64,000 nt of DNA from a virus (IMGVR_UViG_2784746785_000001:1-64000), one strand, 5' to 3'; numbered from the stretch's first letter, positions 37,096 through 57,780 are shown. Numbers and translations: made by a program. Notes: generated by a model not told the origin, from the sequence alone.

Positions 37096-37142
37096 GGCGT
37101 CTGCCTCCTTTCCGGAGCAGATTTCTGTGCTCCTTACACTTC

Positions 37143-37173
37143 CCACTGGAGGCAGGGCACGCGTTTTGACGAA
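37143..37173 (-). promoter_or_regulatory. Motif A copy 3, at the head of the replication operon
   Basis: TTCGTCAAAA-N11-CCTCCAGTGG just downstream of the sigma-like gene. Confidence 0.6.
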
Positions 37174-37236
37174 GACGGAGGGAAGAAATTCTGAAAAAGC
37201 TCCGACCGCCATTTCAGGCAGCCGGAGCCGTGGGCT

Positions 37237-38332: not shown

Positions 38333-38361
38333 TTGACTTTTGAACGTCATCGTGCTATACT
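38333..38361 (+). promoter_or_regulatory. Sigma-A promoter for the Lamassu operon
   Basis: TTGACT-17 bp-TATACT with extended -10 TG. Confidence 0.75.
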
Positions 38362-38489: not shown

Positions 38490-39629
38490 ATGGCATTGGA
38501 ATTCAAAACCTTGTTCCAGATTTTGAAGAAGCATCTGGCTGATGGCTACGATGTACCTCATTTCTTTCGTGATCTTATGGCTATGTTGACAGAGGTTACT
38601 GAGGAGGAATGGGGAACTTCAAAAGATCCTTCCCAAGCGGGGAGAGATAAGTCTTTGCGCAGTTACGCAAAGCGCGGGCTACCTAAGAAGCTGGCACAAA
38701 CAATCGTCTATAGACTTACTCCAGAGAATGTGGTTGATAGCATCAACAGCCATGGTGAAACGCAGCGGCGATTACTTGCGGAAGATTTGGAAGGATATGA
38801 TCCCGATATAAACGCCGATAATGTTGCCGAGAAAGTTGCGGCTTGGCTGGTGGAAATAGTTCAGGTCTCTGCTGGACTTGTCCCACAGGACGAACTGACA
38901 AAGCAGAAACAGCAGCAGCTTGACGCACAGCTAAAAAGCAAATATGGCGACTACCTGCTTGCCGAAGAGGAAAACCATTGTGCGTTCCCCGGCTGCGGGC
39001 GCGAACTTGTGCTGACTAAGGACGGCAGAATCTCCTACGCATATGAGGTAAGTCTGATTGATAAAGTTGCACCGGCAGTTCCCGACAATCTTCTGGCGAT
39101 GTGTCCGCAGTGCCATGCAACCTATCTGCTTGATTCCAACAAGAAGCTATGCAAGGAACTTCAGGAGACAAAAAAGGTACTGGCAACGCATAGACAGAAT
39201 GTGCACATGCTTGATGACCTTCCCTTGGAAAAAGGAATCGTCAGCGTGATAACGAGAATCGCCAAACTGAATGAAAAGGATCTTGCAGATGCGTCGCTTG
39301 ATCCAAAGGAGATAAAGCAGAAGCTCGATCCGACAAAGGACACAGCCATCTACTATGCGGTGAACAATTACGTCGGCGTTTACTTTGTACGAATCAGAGA
39401 AATTATGATGAATCTTGATAAGCGCAGCGTCATTGACTACGAGGAAATCCAAGATCAGATGCATGCGCTGTACCGCCGCTTGAAGAAGGCGAAGAAAACT
39501 CGCCTTGAAATATTCAACGAGATAACGAACAAGGTACATCGCGTCTCGCTGCAGGATGAAATCTACTGCCAGATCGTGGTTGCCTACTTCGTTCAAAGCT
39601 GTGAGGTGTTCGATGCAATTACCGAATAA
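38490..39629 (+). CDS. lmuA: Lamassu/ABC-three-component effector (LmuA-like) with degenerate HNH-like Zn knuckle and CTD
   Basis: CAFPGC...NLLAMCPQCH; C-terminal YFVQSCEVF; first gene of a three-gene overlapping operon. Confidence 0.7.
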   Translation: MALEFKTLFQILKKHLADGYDVPHFFRDLMAMLTEVTEEEWGTSKDPSQAGRDKSLRSYAKRGLPKKLAQTIVYRLTPENVVDSINSHGETQRRLLAEDLEGYDPDINADNVAEKVAAWLVEIVQVSAGLVPQDELTKQKQQQLDAQLKSKYGDYLLAEEENHCAFPGCGRELVLTKDGRISYAYEVSLIDKVAPAVPDNLLAMCPQCHATYLLDSNKKLCKELQETKKVLATHRQNVHMLDDLPLEKGIVSVITRIAKLNEKDLADASLDPKEIKQKLDPTKDTAIYYAVNNYVGVYFVRIREIMMNLDKRSVIDYEEIQDQMHALYRRLKKAKKTRLEIFNEITNKVHRVSLQDEIYCQIVVAYFVQSCEVFDAITE

Positions 39630-39843
39630 GCTTTATTCATATGAAGAAAGCACCCTGGCATTGTTGCCGAGGGTGCTGAACGAACTGAAAAACGGGTCAG
39701 TTTCTGCGGGAGAGCTGTATCTATCGCTGAAGCATAGCCTGAAGGATCCTACGGATTTTCTATCCGCAATGGACTGCCTCTACGCTTTGCGGGCAATAGA
39801 CATGAGCGATGACGGGGAGGTTTCCATATGCTTAAAGAAATGA
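39613..39843 (+). CDS. lmuC: ABC-three-component middle component (LmuC-like)
   Basis: LPNKLYSYEES...AMDCLYALRAI; 76 aa, overlapping both neighbours. Confidence 0.7.
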   Translation: MQLPNKLYSYEESTLALLPRVLNELKNGSVSAGELYLSLKHSLKDPTDFLSAMDCLYALRAIDMSDDGEVSICLKK

Positions 39844-41480
39844 GATCCCCGGCCTTCAGAATAGATGGTGAGGAGAGACCGCCGATAACTTTTCACGAGG
39901 GATTAAATGTTGTCCTTGGAATGGGAAACGGCAAGAATTCAATAGGAAAGTCCTCTGCAATGCAGGCTATCGACTTTGTGTTCGGTGGAAGCACCTATGT
40001 CAAAGGCGACGGCGTAAAGCATGTGGGGCACCATACGATTTTCTTCACGTTTGAATTTGACGGGCAGGAATACCGCTTTGCAAGAAATACCGGTGATCCG
40101 GATATTATTCAGGTGTGTACAGACGGATATGCCTTGACCGGAGAGACGAAGGGGAAAAGCGAATTTGTTGAGTGGCTTAAAGGAAAATATGACCTTGACT
40201 ATCCCGGCTTGTCTTTCCGTTCTACACTGAGCAGTTTTTTCCGGATGCATGGGAAAAGCAATGTGAGCGCCCAGGAGACTCCACTGTATGGTGTGCGCGG
40301 GGACAGCATGCAGAAATCATTGGACCGGCTTGTCAAGTTGTTCAATCGATATAAGGACATTGAGGCTTCCAACGCCAATCTGAGGGAACAGGACGATAAG
40401 CTCACCGCATACAAGGCTGCACGGAAGTATCAGTTTGTCTCCGATCTCGTTGGCGGCGACAAGCAATATGAAGCGAATTCCGCCAAGATCCGCTCTCTGC
40501 AGGTGGAACTTGATAATCTCACTTCCGAGCAAGTGGAGGTGCATTCTGAAGAGGATATCGAAAAGCAGCAGAAGAAGGCCGAGCTTCGTGGACGAAAGCT
40601 TAAAATCGAGACGCAGATCGAGGCAAAGCAACGTCGATTGAATCTGCTGGATATGAGCCTTGAGTATGGCCTGTATCCGACACAGGCTGATCTGAAATCC
40701 CTGCAGGAGTTCTTTCCTGACGTGAATATCCGGAAGCTTTACGAGGTGGAGAACTATCATCAAAAGCTCGCCAGGATTCTCGATGACCAGTTTGAAAGCG
40801 AAAAACAGGCTGTTCTTCTTGAGATCGCGGATTTGGTAGGACAGAGAAAAGATGTCAGTGAGCAGATAAAGGCACTCGGATTTGTGGGAAACATTTCCAA
40901 GGAGTTCCTTGACAGGCATTCAGAGTTAAAGGGAACCATTGATGCGTTGAAAGCACAGAACGAGTCATATTTGACACTTCGAGATTTGAAGGAGGCAAAA
41001 AAACTCGCGAATGATCAACTGAAAAATGCCATCCGGCAGGTCCTAACTGATATCGAGCAGACCATCAATGCAAAGATGGCCGAATACAACAGCACGTTGT
41101 ATTCAGAACACCATAACCCGCCAAAGCTGACGATTAAGGAATACAATAGTTTCACGTTTGAAACTAAGGGAGACGACGGAACGGCAGCGGCTTACAAGGG
41201 AATGATCATATATGATCTTGCGATTTTGAACACTACTGGCCTTCCAGCAATCGCACATGATTCTTTGCTCTATGGTGATTTGAGTTTTGAACTGGTAGAG
41301 GGAATCATGAAGCTGTACATGCAGAATAAAAAACAGGTGTTCATTTCATTTGACAAGCAGGAGGCACATACTCCTGAAACGCAGCGGATACTTGAAGACC
41401 ATACAGTCATAAGGTTATCTGATGGAACCGGAAAGCTATATGGACAGTCATGGGATACAGAGACAGAGGATGAGTCATGA
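39828..41480 (+). CDS. lmuB: SMC-like ABC ATPase (DUF2326; LmuB-like)
   Basis: Walker A NSIGKSS, short coiled coil, degenerate signature/Walker B DDGTAAAY...IAHDS. Confidence 0.8.
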   Translation: MLKEMRSPAFRIDGEERPPITFHEGLNVVLGMGNGKNSIGKSSAMQAIDFVFGGSTYVKGDGVKHVGHHTIFFTFEFDGQEYRFARNTGDPDIIQVCTDGYALTGETKGKSEFVEWLKGKYDLDYPGLSFRSTLSSFFRMHGKSNVSAQETPLYGVRGDSMQKSLDRLVKLFNRYKDIEASNANLREQDDKLTAYKAARKYQFVSDLVGGDKQYEANSAKIRSLQVELDNLTSEQVEVHSEEDIEKQQKKAELRGRKLKIETQIEAKQRRLNLLDMSLEYGLYPTQADLKSLQEFFPDVNIRKLYEVENYHQKLARILDDQFESEKQAVLLEIADLVGQRKDVSEQIKALGFVGNISKEFLDRHSELKGTIDALKAQNESYLTLRDLKEAKKLANDQLKNAIRQVLTDIEQTINAKMAEYNSTLYSEHHNPPKLTIKEYNSFTFETKGDDGTAAAYKGMIIYDLAILNTTGLPAIAHDSLLYGDLSFELVEGIMKLYMQNKKQVFISFDKQEAHTPETQRILEDHTVIRLSDGTGKLYGQSWDTETEDES

Positions 41481-41761
41481 AGAGAAAAATGAGCTATAAG
41501 AAACTGTGGAAGTTGCTGATTGACAGAGATATGAAAAAAACAGACCTCAGAACAGGAGCGGGTATCAGTTCGTCTTCCCTCGCTAAGCTCAGCAAGGACG
41601 AAAATGTCACGACAGATGTTTTGCTGCGGATATGTGACTCGTTGGATGTAGATTTGAATGATATAGCAGAAACTGTGCCTGAAGGTGAAACAGTTGTAGA
41701 AGTAAGAGCTGAGAAACGCAGGCGAACGGCAACAAAACAACATAGGATTGAAAGAACCTGA
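41477..41761 (+). CDS. Cro/C1-type HTH (HTH_26) regulator
   Basis: SYKKLWKLLIDRDMKKTDL...LAKL...VTTDVLLRIC. Confidence 0.9.
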   Translation: MKRKMSYKKLWKLLIDRDMKKTDLRTGAGISSSSLAKLSKDENVTTDVLLRICDSLDVDLNDIAETVPEGETVVEVRAEKRRRTATKQHRIERT

Positions 41762-41860
41762 TGAGGATATGATAGAGATTTAAATTCGCAGGCACAAAAG
41801 GACTTATAAATAAGCTTTCTAATTTAAGCTGATATTACATAGAGAAGAGGATACTTGCAG

Positions 41861-44800
41861 ATGCTTAATAGGGAAATTCCCTTTAGACCAAAGCTTGAGG
41901 GCGATTTTCGAATTCGGTTTTACAATGCTGTATCAAGCATTACTGAACAGACTTCGCTTTTTGAAATCGAGCAAATAGCCAACGATGAAATAAGGTGGGT
42001 GCAGGATGAGTGCACCTATAATTTGGAGCAAAGAAAAAAATATAGAGCGATATGGATGCTTTTCCGCGATTTAACGAGAGCATCCTGGAAAGCGTGCTAC
42101 CGAGATGGCGTTTTATATATGAGCTTACCTAGCCTGAATGGGGCCAATTTCCACGACAGCTCATCTCCTGAGGTAAAAAGCTTATTGAGGAAATGGATGA
42201 GCGAAAGCCGCCACGAGCGCTTGGTTTCATACACTGATTTTATTCAACGGATGGAGCGCAAGAATTCAAGCGGGCATAGCATAGATGAACTTATTGCTGA
42301 TGGACAAGAATTAAGCAATAGACTAAGGAAAGCAAAAGATGGCGCTATTGATATTTCTGAGGCAGTAAAACCGTATTTACAGCTAGTAGTTGAAAATGAA
42401 AGAGATGAGTATACAGGCATAAAGACATCTGAGATATGGAGATATTTTCGCCTTACGTGGTCAACCCCTGCAGAAACCACGCCTGGAAGAACTATGCAAT
42501 ATCTTATTAGAGACGCAGCTCATCCCATGCATGCAGTTATGGGTATTGCTTCTCTTGAAAACTGTGCAGTTCAGATTACATGCCGCGATGATTTCATTGG
42601 CTGGAATCAGAAGGCTTTTATTGATCGAATCACAAAGCTGAACTCCGAACAGGCACGTGCTGAATTTGACAGACTTTTGAATTACATAGAAGTTGGCATT
42701 TCAGGGATTGATTATGAGGAACTTTGTACACAGGCAACTGTAGATAATCCGACGGATGAGGATATACAGCAACTGCTCGATATTGCCACAAGTGCTGAGC
42801 AGCGTAGGCAGGAGTTACTAAAAAAAGGTGTAATTGACGGTATAGATGAGGAAGATAAAAGCGATCTAGGGAGCATTTCAAAAGAAACCGAGGATGCGCT
42901 TTACAGAAGAAAAAGAGCGGAGCAGTTAGGACGGCTTTTGATGGCAAAAAAAGAGCTTTTAGCTGTTTATAGGTCTGAGGATTTTAATTCGATTTGGGTA
43001 GAGTTCTGTAATAGCGAGGTAGGAAATTCCTCTATAAGAACAGCTTTGGTTGCTCAAAAGACTCAACATATCGGGTCAAGCTTAATGGAACTGAATGTTT
43101 GCGGTGCTATACCACCATATAATGAAATCCTTGGAGGAAAGCTTGTCGCGCTACTGGCATTATCTCCGCAGGTAATACACGATTATAAGGAACGCTATTC
43201 AAATAAGGCTAGTATGATTGCAAGCCGACTTAAAGGTGAGGATGTCGTTCGCCCTGCTGATTTGGTGTATGTGGGAACTACATCCTTGTACTATGTTGGC
43301 TCAAGTCAATATAACAGATTAAAAATACCTGGAAGCATATTTAATGACGACTATGATGTTGTATGGAAAAAGCTTGGTATGACAATTGGCTATGGCACAA
43401 TGCATATTAGTAAGGCCACAACCCTTAGCCTTACTGAGGCAACAAGCGAAGGCTTTACTCGTATTAACCATGTATTTGGTGAAGGCGCAAGTCCTAAGAT
43501 GCGTCTTTTGACGATGGCCATCCGTGAGTTACTAGAGTCAACAAATGAGGACTCAAAGGATTTTTCAAAGCATGCCATGTCTCGAATTGTTTATGGTGCT
43601 TGTTTAGCCAAAAATACAGTGCAGTACTTAATGGGTGAAGCAGATAAACCTGATTATTACACTGATGTATCAAAATATCAGGAAGGGACACAAAAAATAA
43701 TAGATTACTGGACAAATCGATGGTTGAAAAGCAGATTGAATTTTGAACCGATTTACCAGAGAATCCGCGATTTTGATAAGAAGAACCTGATGGTTGGATA
43801 TCAGATTAATGACGATGAAAGATGGAAATTCGAGAAACTCGAGGAGGTGCCACAAATGCCAGCTAATGATGAGAATAAGGTTGGGCTGCAGTTTGTCCGT
43901 GATTTCTATAGAGGAATGAGCGCCTATGCGGATCATATCGCCCCAAAACTCCTCACGGGAATTCATCTAAAGACAAAATTAGATGATGCTGTCCTTAATG
44001 CGGCAAGGTCTGGAAAAGACGTTGTTCTCACTGGGAATCCAGGAGATGGAAAAACGCACATTATCCGCATGCTGAAGGATCAGCTAGAAAAACTGGCTGT
44101 TCCGATGGTAATCGAGCTTGATGCGAGTACTCTATCTGACGAAGAAATATATTCTCATTGGGAGCAGGCTCATAAGGATGGCAAGGCGTTTATCATAGCA
44201 ATAAATGCCGCAGTTCTTTATTCGGTTTATAAAAGCCATCCTGCGTTTGGATCTGTTAAAAATGCATATGGACAAATGGCGGATGCGATAGTCTTTCACA
44301 AAAAAGATATTGATACTAGCTCGCTTGTCGTATTTGATCTTAGTAAACGAGAGGCGCTCACGCCTGAAATACTTAGTCAGGCCATCCTTAAAATGACTGA
44401 TGAAAGCCACTATAGTGAGTGCAGGTCCTGTCCACTAAGATCAAACTGTGTGGTGCATAAAAACCGAGCGCTGCTGAGAAATGATCTTTTCCAGCAAAGG
44501 CTTGGCTTAGTATTAGAGCGAGTGTCGCTCAGAGGATATCATGCAACTATTAGAGAAATTCAAAGCTTCATTTCTTATTTGATTTTCGGTGATAGAAGTT
44601 GTAAGCAACTGAACCAGACTGCAGGGAACAGTGAATACGACCTTGTTAACCTCATATATTCAGGTAAAGGCGCGTTGTTTGACGAGATTGGAAAAGCTAT
44701 CGATCCTGTCAATATTTCTCATCCTATTTGGGATGAGAGGATACTACTAAACGACATTGATTCAAACTCATGGATTGAAGGCTTTGAGGTTCCGGCAGAG

Positions 44801-45451
44801 GCCATTGCCTATGATAATGAAGACCTTTTCAATCTTAGGAAAAGACAGTTCTTCTTTTTCAATCAGTATGGGGAGGATCTGCTTTCTATTCTTGATGATG
44901 ATATATCCAGATTCAGGACTTTTCTTCAGCAAGATGATGGAAAGATAATCAAGGAGTTAATAGGGAAACTTAATAGCTTTTTTGGAGCGACTAACGCTTC
45001 TAATTCGCGGTTACAAATATGGACGGGACATCGATACAACAATGAACCAAGAAAGGTACTTATCTCAGTTGGAACTGTAAAGAAAAGTGAATTAAGCATT
45101 GGCCATCCCAGACTTCTGTCGAGTATGCAGGAAGGAATTGATATGCTTCCTAATTATATTCGATTGGAGAAGAAGTCCTCTCCTAATACCTTTCTAAAGG
45201 TGGATTTTGAGATGTACCTTTTGCTTAATGAGGCTCAAAGAGGTGTCCCTGTTTTGTTTACGGAATCTGATCTAGTAAAGAAGGTATGGCGGTTTATCGA
45301 ACAACTACAGTCATATAGTAGTATTGATGATGAAGATATAGTTGATATTGGCCTGATGGATGTTCAGAACAAGAAAACCATTATGGTGAGCCTTGACAGG
45401 GAAGATAATAAATATTCATCGATTGAAAGCGAAAAAACAAGGGAGGCATAA
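41861..45451 (+). CDS. DUF4338/DruA-like domain fused to a DptF(DndF)-like P-loop ATPase
   Basis: N-part: WRYFRLTWS, GRTMQYLIRD...VMGI, ELNVCGAIPPYNEILGGKLVA, TTSLY...SQYNRL (DruA-like). C-part from M at 43856: VVLTGNPGDGKTH, IIAIN, CPL..C, NRALL, TIREIQSFISYLI (DptF-like). Confidence 0.7.
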   Translation: MLNREIPFRPKLEGDFRIRFYNAVSSITEQTSLFEIEQIANDEIRWVQDECTYNLEQRKKYRAIWMLFRDLTRASWKACYRDGVLYMSLPSLNGANFHDSSSPEVKSLLRKWMSESRHERLVSYTDFIQRMERKNSSGHSIDELIADGQELSNRLRKAKDGAIDISEAVKPYLQLVVENERDEYTGIKTSEIWRYFRLTWSTPAETTPGRTMQYLIRDAAHPMHAVMGIASLENCAVQITCRDDFIGWNQKAFIDRITKLNSEQARAEFDRLLNYIEVGISGIDYEELCTQATVDNPTDEDIQQLLDIATSAEQRRQELLKKGVIDGIDEEDKSDLGSISKETEDALYRRKRAEQLGRLLMAKKELLAVYRSEDFNSIWVEFCNSEVGNSSIRTALVAQKTQHIGSSLMELNVCGAIPPYNEILGGKLVALLALSPQVIHDYKERYSNKASMIASRLKGEDVVRPADLVYVGTTSLYYVGSSQYNRLKIPGSIFNDDYDVVWKKLGMTIGYGTMHISKATTLSLTEATSEGFTRINHVFGEGASPKMRLLTMAIRELLESTNEDSKDFSKHAMSRIVYGACLAKNTVQYLMGEADKPDYYTDVSKYQEGTQKIIDYWTNRWLKSRLNFEPIYQRIRDFDKKNLMVGYQINDDERWKFEKLEEVPQMPANDENKVGLQFVRDFYRGMSAYADHIAPKLLTGIHLKTKLDDAVLNAARSGKDVVLTGNPGDGKTHIIRMLKDQLEKLAVPMVIELDASTLSDEEIYSHWEQAHKDGKAFIIAINAAVLYSVYKSHPAFGSVKNAYGQMADAIVFHKKDIDTSSLVVFDLSKREALTPEILSQAILKMTDESHYSECRSCPLRSNCVVHKNRALLRNDLFQQRLGLVLERVSLRGYHATIREIQSFISYLIFGDRSCKQLNQTAGNSEYDLVNLIYSGKGALFDEIGKAIDPVNISHPIWDERILLNDIDSNSWIEGFEVPAEAIAYDNEDLFNLRKRQFFFFNQYGEDLLSILDDDISRFRTFLQQDDGKIIKELIGKLNSFFGATNASNSRLQIWTGHRYNNEPRKVLISVGTVKKSELSIGHPRLLSSMQEGIDMLPNYIRLEKKSSPNTFLKVDFEMYLLLNEAQRGVPVLFTESDLVKKVWRFIEQLQSYSSIDDEDIVDIGLMDVQNKKTIMVSLDREDNKYSSIESEKTREA

Positions 45452-45456
45452 CTGTA

Positions 45457-46950
45457 ATGGAAAGAATATACCTACGCGAAGCACGTGGAGATGTTGATAA
45501 AAAATATGTTGGATTTACTCCCAATGGGTCTGCAGTTAAGCCGGTCCATATTGCGGGAGGGTCTCTACGCTGTATCTACGGTAAATACAATCGCACGCGA
45601 AATATAAAGAAAATGGCACTTGTTTCTGATGCGAAGGGTAATGTGCCTTCTGGGAATGACGCTGATACGATTTATCAGGAGTTAGAGAATAAGGAATTAA
45701 TTGAAGATAACGTTACAGAAAACTCAGTCGAATCTATGCGAAATGAAATGCAAAGACTGCTTTCTGTAGATAGAGGTGTTTATGTCGTTAAAGGATTGAA
45801 GGATGGGATGATTTCTTACTCTGCTGGTTCAAAATACTTTTTGACTAGTAAGGCGATGTATGAGGATGCTGGAGAATTTATGGGAAGCATCGTTAGAGCC
45901 TATTGTCCTGACCTTGCGGAGTATATAAGTGAACTTCTTGATAAAGGAACAGATGCAATTACTCTGTTATTTCAACCTGTTCTTGAGGCTGACATGGAGG
46001 AATTCACTGACCAGAATCAATATGAGGATATCCCTGCGTTTCAGAGCATGAATGACCAAATGAAAAGGTTTACCACCGGCATTGCTGAAGCCGGTTCATG
46101 CCTGTTGGACAATCTGCGGCATCATCCGAATCCCTTGACACAACTGAGGCTTTTTAACTTTTTTTGCATCTTTAACTTGATTAGATATATGGCCCTGCTA
46201 GAAGCCTTTTATTGTGGTGAGTCCGTTAGACCAATCCTTCTTGATTTTAGCGGTAAAAGTCAAAGCTTTAGCAGCGTTGCTCGTGCCTCAGAGATGTCTT
46301 ATACGCAAATGTATAAATCCATCAACAGATTTTATGCGTGGGGCTATGCAAAATGGCTTGAAGACGACAAGGGATATACAAAGGACGATCTCTTAAACTC
46401 CGAAACTCCAGCATATGAGGAAGGTAAAAAGGTATCGAAAACGAGCAAGGAGGAATTAGATGCCTTGTGGACGCTTGCAAAGGAACGAGCGAGTACCCTT
46501 GATGGGGAGGAAATGTATACAGCGTTTGGCGAGACAATGTATGACATGCTTGCGCTGGAGGCCTCTTCACATCCGGTTAATTATTTGAGAGCACTCGGTA
46601 ACTTATCAGGGATTCTTTACCCGCCTGACAAATTCCATCCGAATAAGCGCTTTGTTGTTTCGCAGGATATCTTAGAGATGCTCCTGAGGAGTTGCGTTAA
46701 ATCAAGTGAAGTAATAAGTGGTCAGGATATCAGAAAACGTCTATGGGACCGCTTTGGCATTATTATAGGCGGCGGACAATTTGAAATGACGACTCTTCAC
46801 CAGAGTGGCATGATCCTTCAGATCGACGAAGATGCTCTAGAAGATAATTTCTCTGCCTTTGCATCTGTTCTTGAGTCAATGGATTTTGCAGAAATCATGG
46901 CAGATGGCATTTTGCAGATCAGATTAGGAGGCACTGAAAATGATAGATAA
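45457..46950 (+). CDS. DptG(DndG)-like protein
   Basis: 497 aa, between the DptF-like and DptH-like genes. C-terminal winged-helix-like segment GILYPP...DILEMLL...LWDRFGIIIG...EIMADG recalls the DptG C-terminus. Weak by-eye similarity only. Confidence 0.5.
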   Translation: MERIYLREARGDVDKKYVGFTPNGSAVKPVHIAGGSLRCIYGKYNRTRNIKKMALVSDAKGNVPSGNDADTIYQELENKELIEDNVTENSVESMRNEMQRLLSVDRGVYVVKGLKDGMISYSAGSKYFLTSKAMYEDAGEFMGSIVRAYCPDLAEYISELLDKGTDAITLLFQPVLEADMEEFTDQNQYEDIPAFQSMNDQMKRFTTGIAEAGSCLLDNLRHHPNPLTQLRLFNFFCIFNLIRYMALLEAFYCGESVRPILLDFSGKSQSFSSVARASEMSYTQMYKSINRFYAWGYAKWLEDDKGYTKDDLLNSETPAYEEGKKVSKTSKEELDALWTLAKERASTLDGEEMYTAFGETMYDMLALEASSHPVNYLRALGNLSGILYPPDKFHPNKRFVVSQDILEMLLRSCVKSSEVISGQDIRKRLWDRFGIIIGGGQFEMTTLHQSGMILQIDEDALEDNFSAFASVLESMDFAEIMADGILQIRLGGTENDR

Positions 46951-49900
46951 GCAAGAACTTGTTATAGAACTTCTCGGTCAGCACCTGGCGGCATTAAAGG
47001 TTGGCATCATTATTAAAGGGGTAGATGGAATCTCTCCTGAATCAATAATTGCTGGCCTAGCATCAGATAGTCAGCACTTATATGGAGCAGCTATAGGATA
47101 CGATGGGGTAAAGGAGCATGCAGAGAAGAACTACGATATTACAGATTCTATAGAAAAGGCAGTTCTATGGAGGAGTATTCCGGAGTGTGCGGGGCGCATA
47201 GTCGTTTTTATAAAAACAGATACTGACAAGCTTCATTCTCTGTCAGAATTTGAAAATATAAGTACAAGAGACATCTCTCGCTATTTACTTGAGAAGCAGG
47301 TAAACAGCAACAATAACACCCCTACAAATAATTTTTGGTCAGCTTTAGAAAAAACCTCTGACTACTACACATTCGAAGCTGTTGAAGATTTTGTTAATGC
47401 AGTCGCGAGAAGTAAAAGGCCTGAGGACGCAATACCTAAAAACATGTGGCGATTAAACTTGCTTGAGGATAATGACATCCTTGGCACGAAGAGTAAGCCA
47501 GAGGATCGCCTTGCTCAAAATCGAGATATGATTTTTGCTATTGGGCAGCTAAGTGAAGATTCAAGAAAAAAGCTTAGCCGTTCGCTCGTTCGCTCGAAGG
47601 CAAAGGACAAGGCTCGCTTGCAAGCAGCTTATCGTAGCTTACAGAATTTTTACAAGTATGGTAATCAGGATACATTAAAGGATCTTGACCTTACTACTGT
47701 TCAAGAGCTCTTTTCCGCCTCACAGAAGAAGGAGAAAGTGAAGAAGAAGGAGACACCTAATCCAACCGATGGTCCGGATTCTGACGAGCCAGATTCCAAT
47801 ACTCCTATTCGTCCTAAGGAACTTGATAGGTTGGTTTCTGATGCCATCGTTTTTGGCGATGATGAGGAACAAAGGGATATAAGCAATCTTCTAGAGGAGT
47901 TGGATAAGCATTACGATACTGAGACTGAGGAAAATGATGATTCAATTCCTCCTATCGGGGGTATTTTCGAAGATCGTAGTATCGCTCTTGATACGCATCA
48001 GACAGATTTAAGGAAACTCGTTGGTAAGTTCTGCGGCCTAAATTCATGGGGCGGCATCATGGAGACAGACGAAAGTGTCCTGAAGGATGCTATTTCCGCA
48101 GATATTAACGCTCTACATATATTCGACCCTGAGAGTAAAGATGCTGTCATTTCGTTTGTAGGAGGCATAGACGGAAATCAGCCTTTATTTGATTTTATTA
48201 AGCAGTTTGATGAGCAATTTGACAGCAAAGGTCTGGAGACTCTTGAGAGATTCACTCCAATAATTGACAATCTTAAGATTGCAAGAAAAAGCCTTCTTAC
48301 ACATCTTGACCTGATTATGTATCATCCAGTTCTTTTGTTTGGCGCATCTGAAAAGAGCAAGAATGATCTCATTGAATATATTCAGGCCTGGGAGCGGCTA
48401 TATCACGCTTTCTGCAACAATGAACCTACCATGAGGCAGATAAGTCCGGGCGGAACAAGTTTTATTGCAAGAGCGATATTGCTATTAGACATACTATACG
48501 TAAAAACTCCAAAGGAATGGAAGGGTATTTTATTGCCGCTTCATCCTATTTATTTGTGGCGGTATTATGAGGTCTTCAGGACACTCCCCAATAAAAAAGC
48601 CACACTTGCGGAAGAGGATAAGGAAGCACTAGCAAAGGTCCTAACTCAATTGCCACAGGTTTTAAGTTTTATTGTTGCTAATAATCTCGTGACAAATACT
48701 TCTGAGGATCGTATTCTGCCCTGCTCTGGTAGTATTGAAATGCTACCAACGTTTGAAAACAAGACGAACCGCTACCTGGGAAATGATGGGACAGAATCGA
48801 TAGAGGAAATTCTTACAAGATGGATTGGATTCGCTCCATATACAAGAAACGAAATCAGAATTTGCTCTGTTGATGCGCCGGACTTGATTGGAATAATCCG
48901 TCAGGTCAAGCATTTTATGGATAAAAATGAAGTAAAAAGAGTCGTTTATGATGTTTACCTTACGAGAAATCAAAATGGAAACACCGAGCTTTCAAAGCTT
49001 GATTATTCTGGCAAGGACTACGAAATAGGTGAATTTATAAGAAATGATCGAATTGCAATTAGCATACATAATTGCAAGGATTCTACCGAAGTTAAAGTGG
49101 CATTAGAGTTTAGGCCGGTACATGTGGCTTTTTACTTTGATCAATCCTCGTATTCCATCGAGTATGGCCCGAATAGTCACAACCTGTATATTAATCCGCT
49201 TGTTATCACCTATGAGTATGACTTTGATGAGATTCAGCATAAAGGAACAATCTTCCCTTCATCTGAGTCTGAATCTGGACTTATAGGAGACTATAACAAG
49301 CTATTAAGGTCAGCGGACATTATAAGTAACAATATGAATCCGAGGACAACATATAATGGAAATGCAGACATGACTGCTGTTGTTTCTACCATAAAGGATG
49401 CGCAGACCCAATGGCTCGTTGTAGCGGATAGAGATACAAATAACTATCAGCCTCAGTCCGCTATTCCTATTGGTGAGATGCAGTACGACAAGCGAATGGT
49501 TAATGCTTGGGCGGCAGACAATTCAAGAATAATTACGCAGTATTTGGATCTTCTTCGAGGCTATAACCTCTATCCTAAGAAGGACACACTTGTTGATATA
49601 TTGCGTCAATTTGGACATATTGCTTCGAACGGGTTGATTAGCATACCGAGGTTCGGCGCTGATACGCAGGCAATAGACAATAAGAAGAAGGGTTTAATAG
49701 GAACACTTTTTGCAGCGTCCTGGTATATGAAAAAGTATGATGACGCCCTTGTTGCATCATTAGATGACGATAAGGCTCGCCTTTGGCTGCAAGATAGCAA
49801 ATATGGAAATGAAAGAGCTGACCTTGTAGGTCTTCATTATGATGCGGTTGAAAACAAGCTTTATGTTGAGCCCATTGAGGTCAAGACTAGAGATGAATCT

Positions 49901-51721
49901 CCAGATGCGACAATAACTAGAGATGAGGCCGATTCCAAGCACTTTAACATCTCAGGTCATGCCGCAGAGCAGATAGCGTCTATGGTTGAGCTGTTGCGGG
50001 AAATTTTCTACTCGGATAAAAACTCAATGGATATGTTTACCTCTGCGCGGAGAGAGGTTTTGAAGTATCAAATTGTTTCTGAGTGCTTCAGAAATGTGCA
50101 TGATTCTGATTGGCAAAAGAGATGGTATCTAATCTTGAAAAAGGCCTTCGGTAGTGGCGAAAGCGAAGGACTTAAGATTGAAGTTTCTGGAATTCTTCTT
50201 CATATAAAGTTGAACGAGGCCTCTGGAGGCGAACATATACCATGTAAGAATCCTGATTACGACGATTGCTCAATAGATTACTGGAAATTAACGGCAAAGG
50301 AAATACAACACGATATCCTTGGCGAGGAAACCAAAATAAAGGAATCAATTACTCCGGATTTTGACAATTCTGAGGAATCTGATAAGGAAACTGAATCTAG
50401 TGATGACGCCTTTATTGATACTGACATAGAGGTAGCGAAGGACGAAATGGTGCCTGACAATAATGCAGTAGGACTGTATTCTAGGGATTTTTCTGATCAT
50501 GGTCAAAAAGTACCGATGGTTGCTGAGGGGAATCCAAGCAGTGCAAGCATTCTCAGAGATTCTGGTCCTACACCATATGAGACTAAAAAAAATGCTGAGA
50601 AGGAAAATAATGGTGTCAGCCGCTCCGAGATAGATCGGTTGGTTAAGGATTTTAGGCGCTCGTGTGGTGACTATCATGTTACGCTTAAGGAATGCAATGC
50701 AGAGGATACTGTTGTTGGCCCAAGCGTTATAAGGTTGAAATTCAAGCTTGGGCGAGGACAGGCCCTGCAGGGACTGCAAAGTCATCTCGAAGACATTGGC
50801 AGAGAAATGAAGAGGACAGGCGTAATTATTCAACAGGTGCCAAATTCTGATGAGCTCTTATTGGATGTGCCGAGGCTTAAACGAGAAAAGGTACTGTTTA
50901 GGGATGTGATTGGCTCATTACCAAAGGTCACTTCACCTGAGCAGTTGTATTTCCCGTTAGGAAGAACTCCTAATGGTACGGATCTTTTTGAGGATCTTGG
51001 AGAGATGCCACATATGCTTGTGGGAGGAAGTACTGGCTCTGGTAAATCAGTATTCCTTTTCTCAATGCTTGCCGCGATGCTGATGACTCATCCTCGAAAA
51101 GAAGACTTGCAATTAATTCTTTCTTCAGCAAAGCTGGAGGATTTCATCCATTTTGCTGGGCTTCCCCATTTATACTCTGGCAGTATTATTTCAGATGCTG
51201 AGGAGGCCACCCGCGTAATAAAAGAGGTGGTTTATGAAGAGTCTGAGCGCAGAGGGAAGCTATTAGCTGATGCAAGAGTTGCTAACATTATAGAATACAA
51301 CAAAATTGCAACTGAGAAACTTGCTCCAATTGTTGTTGTAATAGATGAGTTCGCGGATTTGGCGGACCAATTAGAAACAAAGAAGGAGCAGAATGCTTTT
51401 TATAAGCCTGTACAGCGCATAGCGCAGGCTGGCAGGAGCAGAGGAATTCATCTCGTTATATGTACGCAGAGGCCAGAAGCTAAACTGGTTCCTTCAACGA
51501 CAAAAGCTCAATTGAATGGCCGAGTTGCGTTGCGTGTAAATGATGCCATTTCTTCTAGAATGATTATTGAGGAGCCTGATGCCCAGTATCTACAGAAGCA
51601 TGGAGACATGATATATAGAAATGGTGATGTTATAGAAAGAGCCCAGGGATATTTAATCGAAATCCCTGAGTTGGACGAAATAGTTCAAAACGTAATAGAC
51701 GGGAAGTATTTGAAGAGGTGA
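46940..51721 (+). CDS. DptH(DndH)-like large protein: PD-(D/E)XK nuclease motif + C-terminal FtsK/SpoIIIE ATPase
   Basis: RADL...PIEVKT nuclease motif (~49811-49890); PHMLVGGSTGSGKS, VVIDEFADL, GIHLVICTQRP, RVALRV (FtsK); 1593 aa. Confidence 0.7.
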   Translation: MIDKQELVIELLGQHLAALKVGIIIKGVDGISPESIIAGLASDSQHLYGAAIGYDGVKEHAEKNYDITDSIEKAVLWRSIPECAGRIVVFIKTDTDKLHSLSEFENISTRDISRYLLEKQVNSNNNTPTNNFWSALEKTSDYYTFEAVEDFVNAVARSKRPEDAIPKNMWRLNLLEDNDILGTKSKPEDRLAQNRDMIFAIGQLSEDSRKKLSRSLVRSKAKDKARLQAAYRSLQNFYKYGNQDTLKDLDLTTVQELFSASQKKEKVKKKETPNPTDGPDSDEPDSNTPIRPKELDRLVSDAIVFGDDEEQRDISNLLEELDKHYDTETEENDDSIPPIGGIFEDRSIALDTHQTDLRKLVGKFCGLNSWGGIMETDESVLKDAISADINALHIFDPESKDAVISFVGGIDGNQPLFDFIKQFDEQFDSKGLETLERFTPIIDNLKIARKSLLTHLDLIMYHPVLLFGASEKSKNDLIEYIQAWERLYHAFCNNEPTMRQISPGGTSFIARAILLLDILYVKTPKEWKGILLPLHPIYLWRYYEVFRTLPNKKATLAEEDKEALAKVLTQLPQVLSFIVANNLVTNTSEDRILPCSGSIEMLPTFENKTNRYLGNDGTESIEEILTRWIGFAPYTRNEIRICSVDAPDLIGIIRQVKHFMDKNEVKRVVYDVYLTRNQNGNTELSKLDYSGKDYEIGEFIRNDRIAISIHNCKDSTEVKVALEFRPVHVAFYFDQSSYSIEYGPNSHNLYINPLVITYEYDFDEIQHKGTIFPSSESESGLIGDYNKLLRSADIISNNMNPRTTYNGNADMTAVVSTIKDAQTQWLVVADRDTNNYQPQSAIPIGEMQYDKRMVNAWAADNSRIITQYLDLLRGYNLYPKKDTLVDILRQFGHIASNGLISIPRFGADTQAIDNKKKGLIGTLFAASWYMKKYDDALVASLDDDKARLWLQDSKYGNERADLVGLHYDAVENKLYVEPIEVKTRDESPDATITRDEADSKHFNISGHAAEQIASMVELLREIFYSDKNSMDMFTSARREVLKYQIVSECFRNVHDSDWQKRWYLILKKAFGSGESEGLKIEVSGILLHIKLNEASGGEHIPCKNPDYDDCSIDYWKLTAKEIQHDILGEETKIKESITPDFDNSEESDKETESSDDAFIDTDIEVAKDEMVPDNNAVGLYSRDFSDHGQKVPMVAEGNPSSASILRDSGPTPYETKKNAEKENNGVSRSEIDRLVKDFRRSCGDYHVTLKECNAEDTVVGPSVIRLKFKLGRGQALQGLQSHLEDIGREMKRTGVIIQQVPNSDELLLDVPRLKREKVLFRDVIGSLPKVTSPEQLYFPLGRTPNGTDLFEDLGEMPHMLVGGSTGSGKSVFLFSMLAAMLMTHPRKEDLQLILSSAKLEDFIHFAGLPHLYSGSIISDAEEATRVIKEVVYEESERRGKLLADARVANIIEYNKIATEKLAPIVVVIDEFADLADQLETKKEQNAFYKPVQRIAQAGRSRGIHLVICTQRPEAKLVPSTTKAQLNGRVALRVNDAISSRMIIEEPDAQYLQKHGDMIYRNGDVIERAQGYLIEIPELDEIVQNVIDGKYLKR

Positions 51722-51727
51722 TTACTG

Positions 51728-52408
51728 ATGTCTGAGCCGGAGGTTAAATATGGCATATTTAAGACAGAAATCAAAAACCGTTTTCTGTGCACTGTGAATG
51801 TCGACGGGATAGACACACTATGCTATATTCCCTCCTCCTGCAGATTAAGTAACTTTATTAATATGAAAGGCCGAATGGTTTTGCTGTTGCCTATAAAGAA
51901 AGAAAATGCACGGACGAAATATTCCGTGTATGCCATTCAGTACAGACGAGGCTTTGTACCCGTAAGCTTGTCGAGTGTTAATCAAGTTATAAAAAACGAG
52001 CTTAATAGAAGAATTTTCTCTTTCTTGGGTAGCAGAAAACAAGTTTTTGGTGAAAAAAGCATTGATGGTTATAAGAGCGATCTTTATATAGAAGATAGCG
52101 ATACAGTCGTTGAAATTAAAAGCATTCTTTCTTTTGGCAAGGAAGCTTTGTTTCCAACCGTATCCTCAGAGCGGGCTAATCACCAGTTAGAGAATATCAG
52201 GGAACTTCTTCTGAATGGACATAAAGTATGCTATATGTTTATTTCTATGTATGGAGGTACAAAGCAGATAACCGTTAATGAGGAGCAAACAGAATACTTT
52301 TCTCTTTTTAGGAAATGTATAGAGGTAGGCATGACGGTTCGTGGTTTTTCCTTATATATGGATAATGGCGTGCCAAAGGTGAAGGCAACAGTCAAATGCA
52401 TCTTTTAA
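51728..52408 (+). CDS. sfsA: SfsA-family PD-(D/E)XK nuclease-like protein
   Basis: NRFLCTV...CYIPSSCRL, KSDL...VVEIKS, FPTVSSERA..QL. Confidence 0.75.
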   Translation: MSEPEVKYGIFKTEIKNRFLCTVNVDGIDTLCYIPSSCRLSNFINMKGRMVLLLPIKKENARTKYSVYAIQYRRGFVPVSLSSVNQVIKNELNRRIFSFLGSRKQVFGEKSIDGYKSDLYIEDSDTVVEIKSILSFGKEALFPTVSSERANHQLENIRELLLNGHKVCYMFISMYGGTKQITVNEEQTEYFSLFRKCIEVGMTVRGFSLYMDNGVPKVKATVKCIF

Positions 52409-53100: not shown

Positions 53101-53333
53101 GGTGTGAAAAAGGCTTGATTTCAGGTCTTTTTTGCTATCGAGATTATGGAAACATTCAATCAAAGGCCTTAACATAACGCTCTGCGGAAACAGTGCAACG
53201 AAGACTTGCCTGAAAAAGTGTGTATAGTTTAGACGCCGATTTAGATGTCGGGCATTAAAACAGTGGTTTAGATGTCAGAGAGAGTTTAGGTAGCGGATTG
53301 AATGTCGATGGAGAGAAAGGAGATAATTTGCGA

Positions 53334-54320
53334 ATGGAAAGAAATTTACTCGTAGGTAACGGTATTAATATTCAGTTTGGCGGAAAAGATGTATATTCTG
53401 GCTGTGCAACAATGAATAGAGTAGTTGAAAATATAAAGGCCGGAAAATATACAGCACTAGCGGAAAATTCATTATCGACAGAAGAACAGCTTGAATTTTT
53501 AGAGGGACTGGTAAATGTTATTAATCAAATCAGAGGAAAAAAACTCAGAGGTAATGCTGAAGGTTTGTTTATGGTAATGGAATTAGATAGAATTTCAAGA
53601 ACATATCCAGAAAGAAGTAATGTGCTGTCTGTCTTTTTAGAGGATTACTTTTTGGCTTTTGAGATATTTAATAATGGATTTAGAGCAGAAGATGGAGAGG
53701 AACAGAGTGAAAAATTCAGAAAAATAGGATTTGCTTTTCTTCGCCAAATGATAGTTGATGGCATATATAATAACGGTGAAATCAACAATGTGTATAAAAA
53801 TTTTTATCCAGGGATGAATAAGTACCTCAATCGATTCAGTAATATCTTCACAACAAATTACGATTATAACTTGGAAAGTACGTTAGGCAGTTCAGAGCGA
53901 ATATGTCATCTTCATGGGGAGTTTTCAAAATTAGCACCAGAGTACAGTAATACCAGTTTATACTACCAGGAGCATAAACAGGAGTGCAAAAAATTGATAT
54001 CTAATATGATTCATGGGATGGAACAATGCTATAGTGATGCAGTTATGAGTTGGTCTTGGCTTGATAAGTATGGAGAATTGATTGAGTCTGAAACAAAGTA
54101 TAAAGAATCTCTGTTTAAATCGATAGGTGGACAGTTGGAAGTAGTTGGACTTGCACCAGCAAATGATGAGCACCTGTTTTTACTTATTAGCACCAATCCT
54201 AAAATTAAATCAGTTGTATATTACTATCATAATGATGAAGAGAGAAACGAATTGCCACACCACATTAAAAAGCCTGTAACATATAAAAAAGCAGAAAAAC
54301 TATGGGATTCGCTGAAATGA
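53334..54320 (+). CDS. SIR2-like/AbiH-like protein
   Basis: LLVGNG, IFTTNYD, CHLHG, VVGLAPANDEH: the motif order of SIR2_2-type folds. Confidence 0.6.
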   Translation: MERNLLVGNGINIQFGGKDVYSGCATMNRVVENIKAGKYTALAENSLSTEEQLEFLEGLVNVINQIRGKKLRGNAEGLFMVMELDRISRTYPERSNVLSVFLEDYFLAFEIFNNGFRAEDGEEQSEKFRKIGFAFLRQMIVDGIYNNGEINNVYKNFYPGMNKYLNRFSNIFTTNYDYNLESTLGSSERICHLHGEFSKLAPEYSNTSLYYQEHKQECKKLISNMIHGMEQCYSDAVMSWSWLDKYGELIESETKYKESLFKSIGGQLEVVGLAPANDEHLFLLISTNPKIKSVVYYYHNDEERNELPHHIKKPVTYKKAEKLWDSLK

Positions 54321-54395
54321 TATTTTTTGAAAAAATACTTGACAGGGACAAAGTCCCTACTTGCTAAGATAGGTCTTGAAAGGAGGTCGAAGTAT

Positions 54396-55082
54396 ATGAG
54401 ACCAAAAGAAATTCAAGAAAAACTCAATATCGATGGTGACAGAATTAAGCTGTTTAAGAGGGAGGGAATCTTCACACCGGAGAATCCACCATCTGGAAAT
54501 CGAAGCACCAATTATACAGATGCAGATTGTGAGCATTTACGATTGCTTGTAGTGCTTACTAAATCTGGGCTTACATGCAGCGATATCAGAAAGTTGCAAG
54601 AAGGTGAATGCACTTTAGAAGAAGCAATAAAAATCAGAAAGAATAATATTGATGCTGAGATAAAGAGAAAGCAAAATGCATTGATTTTGCTTTCAGAACT
54701 TCTTGCTGATAAGGTGGAATTTGAAACATTCGAAACAGACCATTATTGGAATGTTATTGCGGCGAGAGAAGCAGAGGGCGAGGAATTCATCAATACAGAA
54801 GATATGTATGGCTATCGTGCGGTATCGTTAATTCGCAGTATCAAATGCCCTTATTGCGGTGAGGAACATGAAGTGGATTTAGAAGATTACATGTATGACG
54901 AGAGCAGTTATGAGAAAGAGAATGGAATGGGACCAGATGTAGTCTATAGCTTTAATTCCGAGGATGGTTATGAATGTCATGAATGTGGTAGAATTATACA
55001 AATCGAAGGTTGGATTCGAGAATACCCTGAAGGGGCATACGATTCGGAAGATATCAATGTAGTCGAAGGAGAGAAGGATTAG
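54396..55082 (+). CDS. MerR-family HTH regulator with C-terminal Zn ribbon
   Basis: IKLFKREGIFTP...NRSTNYT..D...L; CPYC...CHEC; AGGAGG RBS. Confidence 0.75.
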   Translation: MRPKEIQEKLNIDGDRIKLFKREGIFTPENPPSGNRSTNYTDADCEHLRLLVVLTKSGLTCSDIRKLQEGECTLEEAIKIRKNNIDAEIKRKQNALILLSELLADKVEFETFETDHYWNVIAAREAEGEEFINTEDMYGYRAVSLIRSIKCPYCGEEHEVDLEDYMYDESSYEKENGMGPDVVYSFNSEDGYECHECGRIIQIEGWIREYPEGAYDSEDINVVEGEKD

Positions 55083-55437: not shown

Positions 55438-55508
55438 GAAACGAGAAGATGATACACTATACTCATGCTGCGGTAATATCTGTTTTTGAAAATCGAGAGG
55501 TGACCACC

Positions 55509-55730
55509 ATGGAAGTTAGTTATAAAAAATTATGGAAAATTTTGATCGACAAAGACATGAAAAAGAAAGACTTACAGGCAGCTGCTGGAATGAGCTGGGC
55601 TTCAGTTACAAAGCTTTCAAAGGGAGAGACTGTAAGCATGGAAGTGTTGATGAAGGTGTGCAAGGCACTTGACTGTAATATAGGAGATATTATGGATTTT
55701 ATCCCCACAGATGGAGATAGCAAAGCTTGA
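55509..55730 (+). CDS. Cro/C1-type HTH (HTH_26) controller-like regulator
   Basis: SYKKLWKILIDKDMKKKDL; paralogue of 41477..41761. Confidence 0.9.
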   Translation: MEVSYKKLWKILIDKDMKKKDLQAAAGMSWASVTKLSKGETVSMEVLMKVCKALDCNIGDIMDFIPTDGDSKA

Positions 55731-55741
55731 GGGGTGAGAAT

Positions 55742-56866
55742 ATGTCAGGCAGAAGAAAAAATGTAATCAGTAAAGCCAGTCCCCATACGATAAAGAAATT
55801 TGAATTGATCGAAGAGTACATAAAATCGTGGGCGCAGAAACTTATGCTGACCGACTCGTGCAATGGTCTTATCTTTATTGATTGTATGTGCAATTGCGGT
55901 GTGTATACAAACGATGCCGGAGAAATAGTAAAGGGAACGGCACTGCGAGTTTCTGAAGCTCTGCTGAATGTTGCAAGGCTTTATCCAAATAAAACAGTAC
56001 AAGTTTATTTAAACGACAAAGATAAAAATCGAGTGGATGAGTTGGAAAAACACTTGCCACAGAATGAACGGAATTTTCAGATTGTGACGTCACGACTTGA
56101 TGCACATGAACTTTTAAGAACTATAGGGCCGCAGCTATATCAGGCCGGTCATTTACATTATTTTCTATTTTATGATCCTTACGATGCCGATATCGATTGG
56201 GAAGCGTTGCTACCATTTTTTCGCAACTGGGGCGAAGTTGTAATCAATCACATGGTTTCTGATCCGGTTAGAGCGATTACAAGTGCTAAGAAGAAAACCA
56301 CTAAAGAAAAATATGAGAATACGTATCTTGAAGATTTTGAAAAATTGGTTCCGTTTGGAAGTGACAAGGTTGCATATGAGGCAAGAGTTGAGGAGATTAT
56401 TAATTCCCTAAAGGGAACACGCAGGTACTTTGTGTCGGCATTTCCTTTCTATAACACGCAGAACTCACACATGTATAACCTGATACATTGCACAAGTAAT
56501 AAAGAAGGGTTCAAGCTATACAAGAAAAGTGCCTGGAAGGTATTTGGCAATCAGTCGTCTACCAAGAATTCTCCGGAGAGTGAGCAACTTTCTTTTGATT
56601 CTTATGGCATCATTACAAATGAAACGGATGAATCTTGCTTCCATGTTTCTGATATTTCGAGATACCTTCAGCAAAACTTCAAAGGCCGTAAACAGGTGCA
56701 GCTTACCGAAATGTGGGAACTACTGGATGATCACCCGATTTTCCCGTCAGAAGGGTATCGGAATGAGATAAAGAAGGATCTTTCTGAAAGATTTGGCGCA
56801 AAAATAGAACAGATTGTAAGCGATGAAAATGGTAAGAAAGAAACAGTCATCTTCTTCTCCTTGTAA
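55742..56866 (+). CDS. tcmP: Three-Cys-motif partner (TcmP)-like methyltransferase-fold protein 1
   Basis: HTIKKFELIEEY..SW, FIDCMCNCG, FLFYDPY, LIHCTSN..G..L.K, C-terminal wHTH-like region. Confidence 0.7.
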   Translation: MSGRRKNVISKASPHTIKKFELIEEYIKSWAQKLMLTDSCNGLIFIDCMCNCGVYTNDAGEIVKGTALRVSEALLNVARLYPNKTVQVYLNDKDKNRVDELEKHLPQNERNFQIVTSRLDAHELLRTIGPQLYQAGHLHYFLFYDPYDADIDWEALLPFFRNWGEVVINHMVSDPVRAITSAKKKTTKEKYENTYLEDFEKLVPFGSDKVAYEARVEEIINSLKGTRRYFVSAFPFYNTQNSHMYNLIHCTSNKEGFKLYKKSAWKVFGNQSSTKNSPESEQLSFDSYGIITNETDESCFHVSDISRYLQQNFKGRKQVQLTEMWELLDDHPIFPSEGYRNEIKKDLSERFGAKIEQIVSDENGKKETVIFFSL

Positions 56867-56900
56867 GGCAGAGGGCATATTAATGAGGATGGGAAAACAA

Positions 56901-57764: not shown

Positions 57765-57780
57765 GCGGAGGAAATTTTAC

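Follow-up and report, generated by a model that had tools for sequence, protein, structure and literature searches.

How does a restriction machine spare the chromosome of its host when the genes that would mark this chromosome are missing? The question is raised by four genes at positions 41861-52408 of the viral sequence IMGVR_UViG_2784746785_000001:1-64000 (hereafter the window, i.e. the whole stretch of 64,000 nucleotides that was analysed), which join DruA, the gene that opens the type I Druantia operon, to relatives of the F, G and H subunits of the DndFGH and SspFGH restriction machines and to a nuclease of the SfsA family. FGH machines are, to our knowledge, the least understood of the restriction systems, and we know of no account of how FGH loci lacking phosphorothioation (PT) spare their host. 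Likewise, we know of no activity of DruA and of no clear cellular role for SfsA, which is a widespread nuclease. All parts of the locus are homologous to described proteins, their catalytic motifs are intact, their linkage is conserved and PT genes are absent; judged from its sequence, the locus is very probably a PT-independent member of the SspFGH/DndFGH family that serves in defence, family assignment and defence role being taken together.

Organization of the cassette

The four tightly coupled genes reported in the initial annotation are real. Open reading frame (ORF) and GC analysis agrees with the gaps of 5, -11 and 6 nt between genes 1-4 and with their AT-richness, the GC content being 0.40-0.42 over these genes vs 0.55-0.61 in the left 38 kb of the window, so that the AT-rich block starts near 38 kb. 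The ORF of gene 1 is open from 41855, with the true start at the ATG at 41861, since the homologues start with MLN and a protein atlas contains this protein from its residue 3; the sequence AGAGGA is found upstream. Together with a small helix-turn-helix (HTH) gene, the whole cassette (HTH, DruA-F, G, H and SfsA) occupies 41477-52408, i.e. five genes within about 11 kb, all in the same orientation:

41477-41761, + strand: small regulator of the HTH_26 (Cro/C1) type, probable first gene of the cassette (Pfam HTH_26, 1.7e-18)
41861-43855, + strand: gene 1, N-terminal half, DruA (DUF4338) module, residues ~1-665 (PADLOC DruA1, Pfam PF14236)
43856-45451, + strand: gene 1, C-terminal half, P-loop NTPase (kinase-like) of the SspF/DndF type with a Cys-cluster insert in the lid (PADLOC SspF, DndF)
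45457-46950, + strand: gene 2, predicted multi-winged-helix DNA-binding subunit of the DndG/SspG type
46940-51721, + strand: gene 3, giant subunit of the SspH/DndH type, 1593 residues
51728-52408, + strand: gene 4, SfsA-family nuclease with OB fold and PD-(D/E)XK domain, predicted accessory effector
38490-41480, + strand: neighbouring ABC-3C system with CTD11 effector, MC7 and ABC ATPase/DUF2326 (Pfam)

The HTH gene overlaps the stop codon of the ABC ATPase gene by 4 nt, and 99 nt lie between its end and the ATG of gene 1. A promoter and terminator scan returned 21 sites vs 31 expected from shuffled sequence, i.e. no excess, and the sole strong promoter-like site of the region (10/12 matches) is located at 38333-38361, ahead of the ABC-3C genes.

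Subunits of an FGH machine

The domain calls of the initial annotation, namely DruA joined to an F-type P-loop domain, a G-like protein, an H-like nuclease-FtsK protein and SfsA, hold in the light of PADLOC, Pfam and PDB matches and of invariant motifs. Residues 43-639 of gene 1 match PADLOC DruA1 (PDLC00001) at 1.2e-118 and Pfam DruA (PF14236) at 1.3e-33, while in the C-terminal half residues 693-935 match the PADLOC models of SspF at 1e-16 to 5.6e-18 and of DndF at 1.8e-8. In this half the Walker A motif (GDGKTH; G730-D-G-K-T734) is invariant, Walker B reads IAIN, with Asn instead of Asp, and C856, C859 and C865 are conserved at the place where some DndF proteins carry a Zn insert in the lid. 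The hallmarks of DndF are a canonical Walker A, an Asn in Walker B, an enlarged lid and, in some members, a Zn insert (Rakesh, Aravind and Krishnan, NAR 2024; PMC10853773), and the F half is accordingly placed, as a prediction, among the derived P-loop kinase-like NTPases of the DndF/SspF type. The in-frame Met668 is located at the DruA/F junction (43841-43860), which is the point where F starts in the split forms of the system. This methionine is present in most close homologues, replaced by Leu in P0090 and absent from the distant fused proteins of L014, L015 and L016, so that a separate translation of F is not conserved.

Gene 2 has the size (about 450-500 residues), the multiple winged helices and the DndG fold of a G subunit; PDB sequence searches with genes 1 and 2 returned nothing beyond generic P-loop matches. 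Gene 3 combines the two features that define an H subunit, a C-terminal ATPase of the HerA/FtsK class and an intact PD-(D/E)XK nuclease ahead of this motor. The nuclease (residues ~870-1130) has a restriction endonuclease fold and its motif D961...E980-V-K982 is invariant across the family. It is placed just before the FtsK alpha+beta motor (about residues 1254-1581; PDB 2ius, 2e-38 over residues 1254-1560; Pfam FtsK_SpoIIIE, 3e-30), which aligns with the alpha+beta domains of E. coli and Pseudomonas FtsK. In PADLOC the last ~340 residues match SspH (PDLC02804) at 8e-63, the match being limited to that part.

The remainder of gene 3 is harder to assign. Residues 1-114 are predicted to form a helicase-C-like N-terminal domain, and Pfam and PADLOC scans of sub-regions gave no matches within residues 1-1240. 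An AlphaFold2 (AF2) model of residues 1-1200, built from a shallow alignment, has a pLDDT of 63.5, and Foldseek with this model returned weak AAA+/clamp-loader rows only. In DndH an inactive SWI2/SNF2-type C-domain at the N-terminus is followed by an HTH, and the middle region consists of two beta-sandwiches, two target recognition domains and an inactive adenine methylase (PMC10853773). Residues 577-850 of gene 3, a highly conserved region, have a pLDDT below 50 in the model, which weakens the case for a full DndH architecture. The linker at residues 1121-1240 (50300-50660) is acidic and hypervariable, with a column identity of 0.14-0.49 vs 0.7-0.9 elsewhere in the clade, and the first 80 residues are also fast-evolving.

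Absence of modification genes

The initial annotation had reported that PT genes and DruB-E are absent from the window. This is confirmed, no dnd, ssp or dru partner gene being present in the 64 kb, and extends to the host genome of the window (3.72 Mb, 98.9% complete), in which profile searches found no DndC, DndE, SspC, SspD or SspE, and DndD gave only SMC-like matches below the cut-off. The same genome has no match to MZB/DUF1998 (PF09369), a search whose control was positive in 8/14 genomes. Searches for DndC, SspD and MZB were positive in control genomes; those for DndE, SspC and one for SspE were positive in none and are hence weaker. The classical pairing of FGH with dndABCDE or sspABCD is thus not found here, and it is not required in the redefinition of the family from 2024 (PMC10853773).

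Relation to known systems

By sequence, the closest characterised system is SspFGH, which is nearer than DptFGH. SspF, SspG and SspH are the best PADLOC matches of the three genes or of their families, and SspFGH of Vibrio anguillarum FF-93 shares the order of a Walker-A NTPase F, a DNA-binding G of ~500 residues and a giant H that ends in FtsK. Unlike SspFGH, the cassette has no sspABCD in its locus or genome, carries a DruA of ~665 residues on or before F, has SfsA and the HTH gene attached, and is found in a Firmicute instead of a Vibrio. As to the likeness to DptFGH proposed in the initial annotation, similarity to canonical DptG and DptH is not significant (hhalign against one DptH and one DptG of genome G264, E 0.034 and 0.38), and the NCBIfam dnd_assoc models do not match. 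Between gene 3 and the DptH of G264 the nuclease core alone aligned, with D-LVG...PIEVK common to both.

By architecture, the closest system is the variant with GNAT(DUF4338)-DndF and clade-2 FtsK DndH, as part of a survey that contains standalone DndFGH, GNAT(DUF4338)-DndF fusions and clade-2 DndH with a captured cellular FtsK including FtsK-alpha (PMC10853773). The statement that no system of this composition had been described can therefore not be upheld. The main text of that study is without SfsA, a link to Druantia, the split form of DruA and F, or the HTH gene. New relative to the literature searched are the recurrent SfsA, the HTH leader, the occurrence of split and fused DruA in Bacteria and Archaea, and the explicit bridge that DruA forms between Druantia and FGH.

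Type I Druantia, reportedly the subject of work by Doron and colleagues in 2018, consists of DruABCDE, with DruE, a helicase of ~2000 residues with MZB/DUF1998, forming the core of all Druantia types. Like the cassette, it has a full-length DruA as the first gene of a big operon with a large ATP-driven DNA motor. Unlike type I Druantia, the cassette is without DruB, C, D and E, and its motor is an FtsK-nuclease and not the DruE helicase. In PADLOC the genes after DruA match SspF/G/H and SfsA and no Dru model. As for the chimera envisaged in the initial annotation, a DruA module is joined to an FGH-type machine, but nothing else of Druantia is present, and beyond the DruA module itself the cassette is not a Druantia chimera.

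Two other systems were considered and rejected. MADS is an eight-gene operon with a methyltransferase, a kinase, MAD3/MAD4 and MAD7/MAD8; of mad1-8 there were only weak and partial matches, MAD7 to gene 2 at 0.002 and mad8 to the FtsK domain at 4e-20, and the cassette has no methylase, kinase or MAD3/4. The BREX-related capture system BRC requires PglZ, ORC/Cdc6 and TGT (PMC12839542), none of which is present. An FGH operon extended by one co-transcribed nuclease gene, as here, is also found in Salmonella enterica Cerro 87 (dndFGH-dndI; PMC11662687). Unlike DndI, a PT-sensing DUF262-HNH protein, the additional nuclease of the cassette is an SfsA with OB and PD-(D/E)XK domains.

Distribution and conserved linkage

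The relatives of gene 1 number more than 1,200; among the 120 matches listed most are 1196 residues long. The initial annotation had left open to refutation whether the four genes co-occur elsewhere; they do, being colinear in the related loci L001-L006 at 68-97% identity and all present in genomes G043 and G068 as well, and their colinearity in all related loci with enough flank is far above chance. The order HTH, DruA-F, G, H, SfsA characterises a close clade comprising a Peptoniphilaceae isolate and metagenome-assembled genomes (MAGs) of Lachnospiraceae, Anaerovoracaceae and other Firmicutes, all as reference genomes. The trio of DruA-F (1206-1248 residues), G and H (1553-1566 residues, with FtsK) is kept at 26-38% identity of G, while at 22-23% identity DruA is a separate gene of 661 residues directly upstream of an F of 512-513 residues. 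Such a split is seen in L017, in a JGI contig, in G043 and in archaea.

In a survey of the phylum the cassette was found in 3/400 sampled genomes (G068, G043 and G295) and in 0/3 other genomes of the family of the host. G068 has the order HTH-SfsA-DruA-F-G-H between an isoleucyl-tRNA synthetase and a pyridoxal phosphate enzyme, with no mobile element around. In G043 ArdC/IrrE is followed by DruA, F, G, H and SfsA and then by a second DruA with an FRG/PDC-S15 protein, and in G295 DruA-F, G and H are located on a short contig. Haloarchaeal plasmids carry DruA, F, G, a protein annotated as 'DNA translocase FtsK', a Zn-ribbon protein of 368 residues and a GmrSD-type nuclease, and a Hymenobacter plasmid carries the fused DruA-F form, disrupted by an insertion sequence. 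DruA, F, G and H thus form a coherent, ancient and mobile unit that extends from Firmicutes to Bacteroidota and the plasmids of haloarchaea.

Proposed mechanism

DndF, DndG and DndH join in a 2:2:1 complex that acts as a translocation-coupled nickase, the ATPase of which is repressed by PT on self DNA (PMC11662687), and SspF, SspG and SspH are all essential for phage defence (Wang et al., 2021; PMC8092258). By homology with these characterised systems we infer complex formation, translocating-nickase activity and a defence role for the cassette. F and G would assemble with H, DNA would be bound by G and by the variable, fast-evolving N-terminal domains of H, and the C-terminal FtsK motor of H would translocate along, or pump, the duplex, so that its PD-(D/E)XK domain could nick or cut the passing DNA. 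SfsA would most likely process the damaged DNA further or serve as a back-up effector, and the small HTH protein may set the expression of the cassette.

The role of DruA

How such a machine distinguishes self from non-self may depend on DruA, which we tentatively propose as the source of the self mark or licence; most likely it would be an enzyme akin to acyl-transferases that either marks the DNA of the host or gives the complex its licence. Both assayed FGH modules turn on the cell in the absence of a DNA mark, SspFGH by damaging unmarked host DNA (PMC8092258) and DndFGH by harming cells without PT (PMC11662687). Since DruA, fused or adjacent to F, always accompanies the clade, being found in every inspected member whose upstream flank sufficed, to as little as 22% identity of G, it is a candidate for the self/non-self discriminator. 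Within the close clade no part of gene 1 is better conserved than the DruA core (0.82-0.98 vs 0.60-0.77 for the F half), which points to an enzyme and not to a variable sensor. The block VCGAxPPYNxxLGGKL is invariant in the DruA half and resembles motif A of GNAT proteins. DUF4338 of Pfam has been assigned to the GNAT domains and counted among the N-terminal fusions of DndF (PMC10853773).

Several observations weigh against this proposal. When the DruA core was compared with Pfam at a permissive threshold (E up to 5), DruA was the sole match and no GNAT family came up, the core had no usable match in a protein atlas, and the profile of the gene 1 family found only generic P-loop proteins in the PDB. 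Protective writers are often hijacked by phages, and a search of 50,697 phage records brought up no DruA in orphan form. Moreover, DruA pairs with several unrelated types of partner, i.e. FGH, an FRG/PDC-S15 protein, a GHKL ATPase and DruB-E. Finally, most DndFGH are decoupled from a modification module, so that a writer is perhaps unneeded, and the N-terminal fusions equivalent to GNAT/DUF4338 at the same position of DndF (HEPN, NERD and kinases) are interpreted as back-up effectors (PMC10853773).

These last three points also argue for a different role of DruA in the same FGH machine, which is possible, if somewhat doubtful: DruA would be a back-up effector, co-effector or regulator, namely a GNAT acetyltransferase that acts on host or invader proteins when the main restriction activity is blocked, and self would be told from non-self through nucleotide sensing by F and through the many domains of G and H that bind DNA or act as sensors. 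The N-terminus and the linker of H evolve fast, as surfaces in contact with the invader would. However, the autotoxicity of both assayed FGH modules is at odds with a machine in which no component provides a mark, the presence of DruA in all these inspected members is unlike that of an optional add-on, and a core more conserved than F would be unusual for a swappable back-up effector.

Two loci illustrate the range of DruA partners. Directly after the cassette of G043 (L022:6127-11377) there is a second full-length DruA (683 residues; PADLOC 1e-137) paired with an FRG protein (PDC-S15, 2e-43), so that DruA also partners a module other than FGH. On the Roseivivax plasmid NZ_CP045391.1 (L026:10040-13794) a DruA of 662 residues overlaps the end of a gene for a GHKL-type ATPase (HATPase_c_3, 1e-18); a second ATP-binding protein is encoded nearby, and F, G, H and DruB-E are absent from the locus.

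The proposal that DruA provides the self mark can be taken further, at the cost of becoming speculative: DruA could be a new DNA-marking enzyme, a writer with an acyl-transferase fold that provides, in place of phosphorothioation, the self mark which FGH reads, and that is portable across DruB-E, FGH, FRG and GHKL partners. In its logic such a writer would be comparable to Mom of phage Mu. Also in favour of the less far-reaching proposal, DruA as the supplier of the self mark or licence, a preprint reports a new m6A-like DNA modification signal in cells that express type I Druantia, although no methylase domain is part of this system (bioRxiv 10.1101/2024.04.14.589459); subsequent preprints refer to the signal as a modification of the host genome.

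SfsA, HTH and ABC-3C: accessories and neighbours

Gene 4 contains both domains of SfsA, the OB and the restriction endonuclease domain (Pfam SfsA, 7e-13; SfsA_N, 5e-8), and scores 67 bits against TIGR00230, below the cut-off of 126 for housekeeping SfsA. Its catalytic triad (D118...E129-x-K131) is unchanged in the copies that are linked to the system, at 33% identity. SfsA directly follows H in the window, L002, L003, L005, L006 and G043, and is located between HTH and DruA-F in G068; in G043 it belongs to the distant version with split DruA, after an H that is only 26% identical. Since the linkage survives changes of gene order and deep divergence, SfsA is a real, recurrent accessory of the cassette, and the role of an additional effector that the initial annotation had suggested is supported.

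It is unlikely that DruA-F, G and H alone make up the machine and that SfsA, and with it the HTH gene, is an independent neighbour in a shared defence island. SfsA is indeed missing from L014, where genes of 142 and 524 residues are found instead, and from the archaeal plasmid, which counts against an accessory role, it diverges faster (49-55% identity) than genes 1-3 (68-78%), and the ABC-3C genes show that stable adjacency is possible without a common history. Yet SfsA is kept beside the core in three arrangements (the clade of the window, G068 and G043), only 6 nt separate it from gene 3, its copies score below the housekeeping cut-off with catalytic residues unchanged, and the Salmonella dndFGH operon also has one more co-transcribed nuclease gene, dndI (PMC11662687). 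On the Natrialbaceae plasmid NZ_CP127176.1 (L024:19796-23407) the place of SfsA is taken by the 368-residue Zn-ribbon protein and GmrSD (DUF262 + DUF1524), the latter with the domain layout that DndI and SspE have in PT systems.

In L001-L007, L014 and G068, some of which lack ABC-3C, the cassette is directly preceded by a homologue of the HTH gene, and this gene is thus the usual leader of the cassette in Firmicutes. ABC-3C systems consist of an ABC ATPase, a middle component and an effector bearing a CTD, and the one upstream of the cassette is complete (Pfam CTD11, 7e-35; MC7, 5e-25; DUF2326, 5e-15; also AAA_23). It is found upstream in L002, L003, L005 and L006 and is absent from G068, L014, G043 and the archaeal plasmid. 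Between the window and L006, genes 1-3 are 76-78% identical vs 24-32% for ABC-3C, which in turn is 59-66% identical between L003 and L006. This history is discordant with that of genes 1-4 and indicates recombination between both blocks. ABC-3C was therefore rejected as a part of the system and is a separable neighbour outside the core.

Could the modification act in trans?

It is very improbable that the cassette works as a conventional PT-dependent restriction module with dnd or ssp modification genes located elsewhere in the host. In G068 a different contig does carry a true DndC (572 bits), which opposes PT independence, and the nearest PADLOC models, SspF/G/H, stem from PT-coupled systems. 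On the other hand, the surroundings of the cassette are free of PT genes in all of the ~15 loci examined, G295 has neither DndC nor SspD, and G043 shows only a PAPS-reductase-like match below the cut-off. Since PT writers are missing both in G295 and in the nearly complete genome of the window host, PT in trans is not the rule.

Carrier and genomic island

The block at 38.3-52.7 kb is 92% identical to L002, where the left-hand context differs. Genes of phage-like character at 31876-37242 of the window (family A DNA polymerase, DUF2800 nuclease) have relatives upstream of the cassette in L006:1-5303, a Firmicutes MAG, and L003 has a short match to the polymerase gene downstream of its cassette. 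The high identity to L002 in another context, together with the phage-like relatives in L006, indicates that the block is cargo of a mobile element, and the carriers seem to be related mobile elements that make up one family. The sporadic distribution and the mobile-element context fit a defence cassette. FtsK-family motors also serve conjugation and segregation, but a module of the mobile element for DNA segregation, transfer or packaging, as could be imagined from the phage-like or integrative and conjugative element (ICE)-like surroundings in L006 and from ArdC upstream of the cassette in G043, is a most improbable alternative, given that the motor forms one protein with an intact nuclease of the restriction type, that its partners are homologous to proven restriction subunits, and that the cassette stands among housekeeping genes without an element in G068 and within a run of defence systems in the window.

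Further genes of this island follow the cassette. At 53298-55082 a protein of 340 residues with faint SIR2-like matches (E 0.012-0.027) precedes a MerR-family protein (251 residues), and the two may form another small defence pair. At 55449-63569 there is a second HTH_26 gene and, after it, genes for unassigned proteins of 379 and 313 residues, a radical SAM/DUF5131-like protein, an N6/N4 DNA methylase (709 residues) and a ResIII helicase (960 residues), an arrangement that looks like a type III-like restriction-modification system extended by a radical-SAM module.

Significance

The cassette adds SfsA to the effectors associated with defence and joins two puzzles, namely how FGH machines without phosphorothioation spare their host and what DruA does. 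If DruA is indeed a writer, this would explain the 'm6A-like' modification of host DNA reported for type I Druantia despite the lack of a methylase. With its five genes and its DruA either fused to F or split from it, the compact cassette offers a handle on the recognition of self vs foreign DNA.

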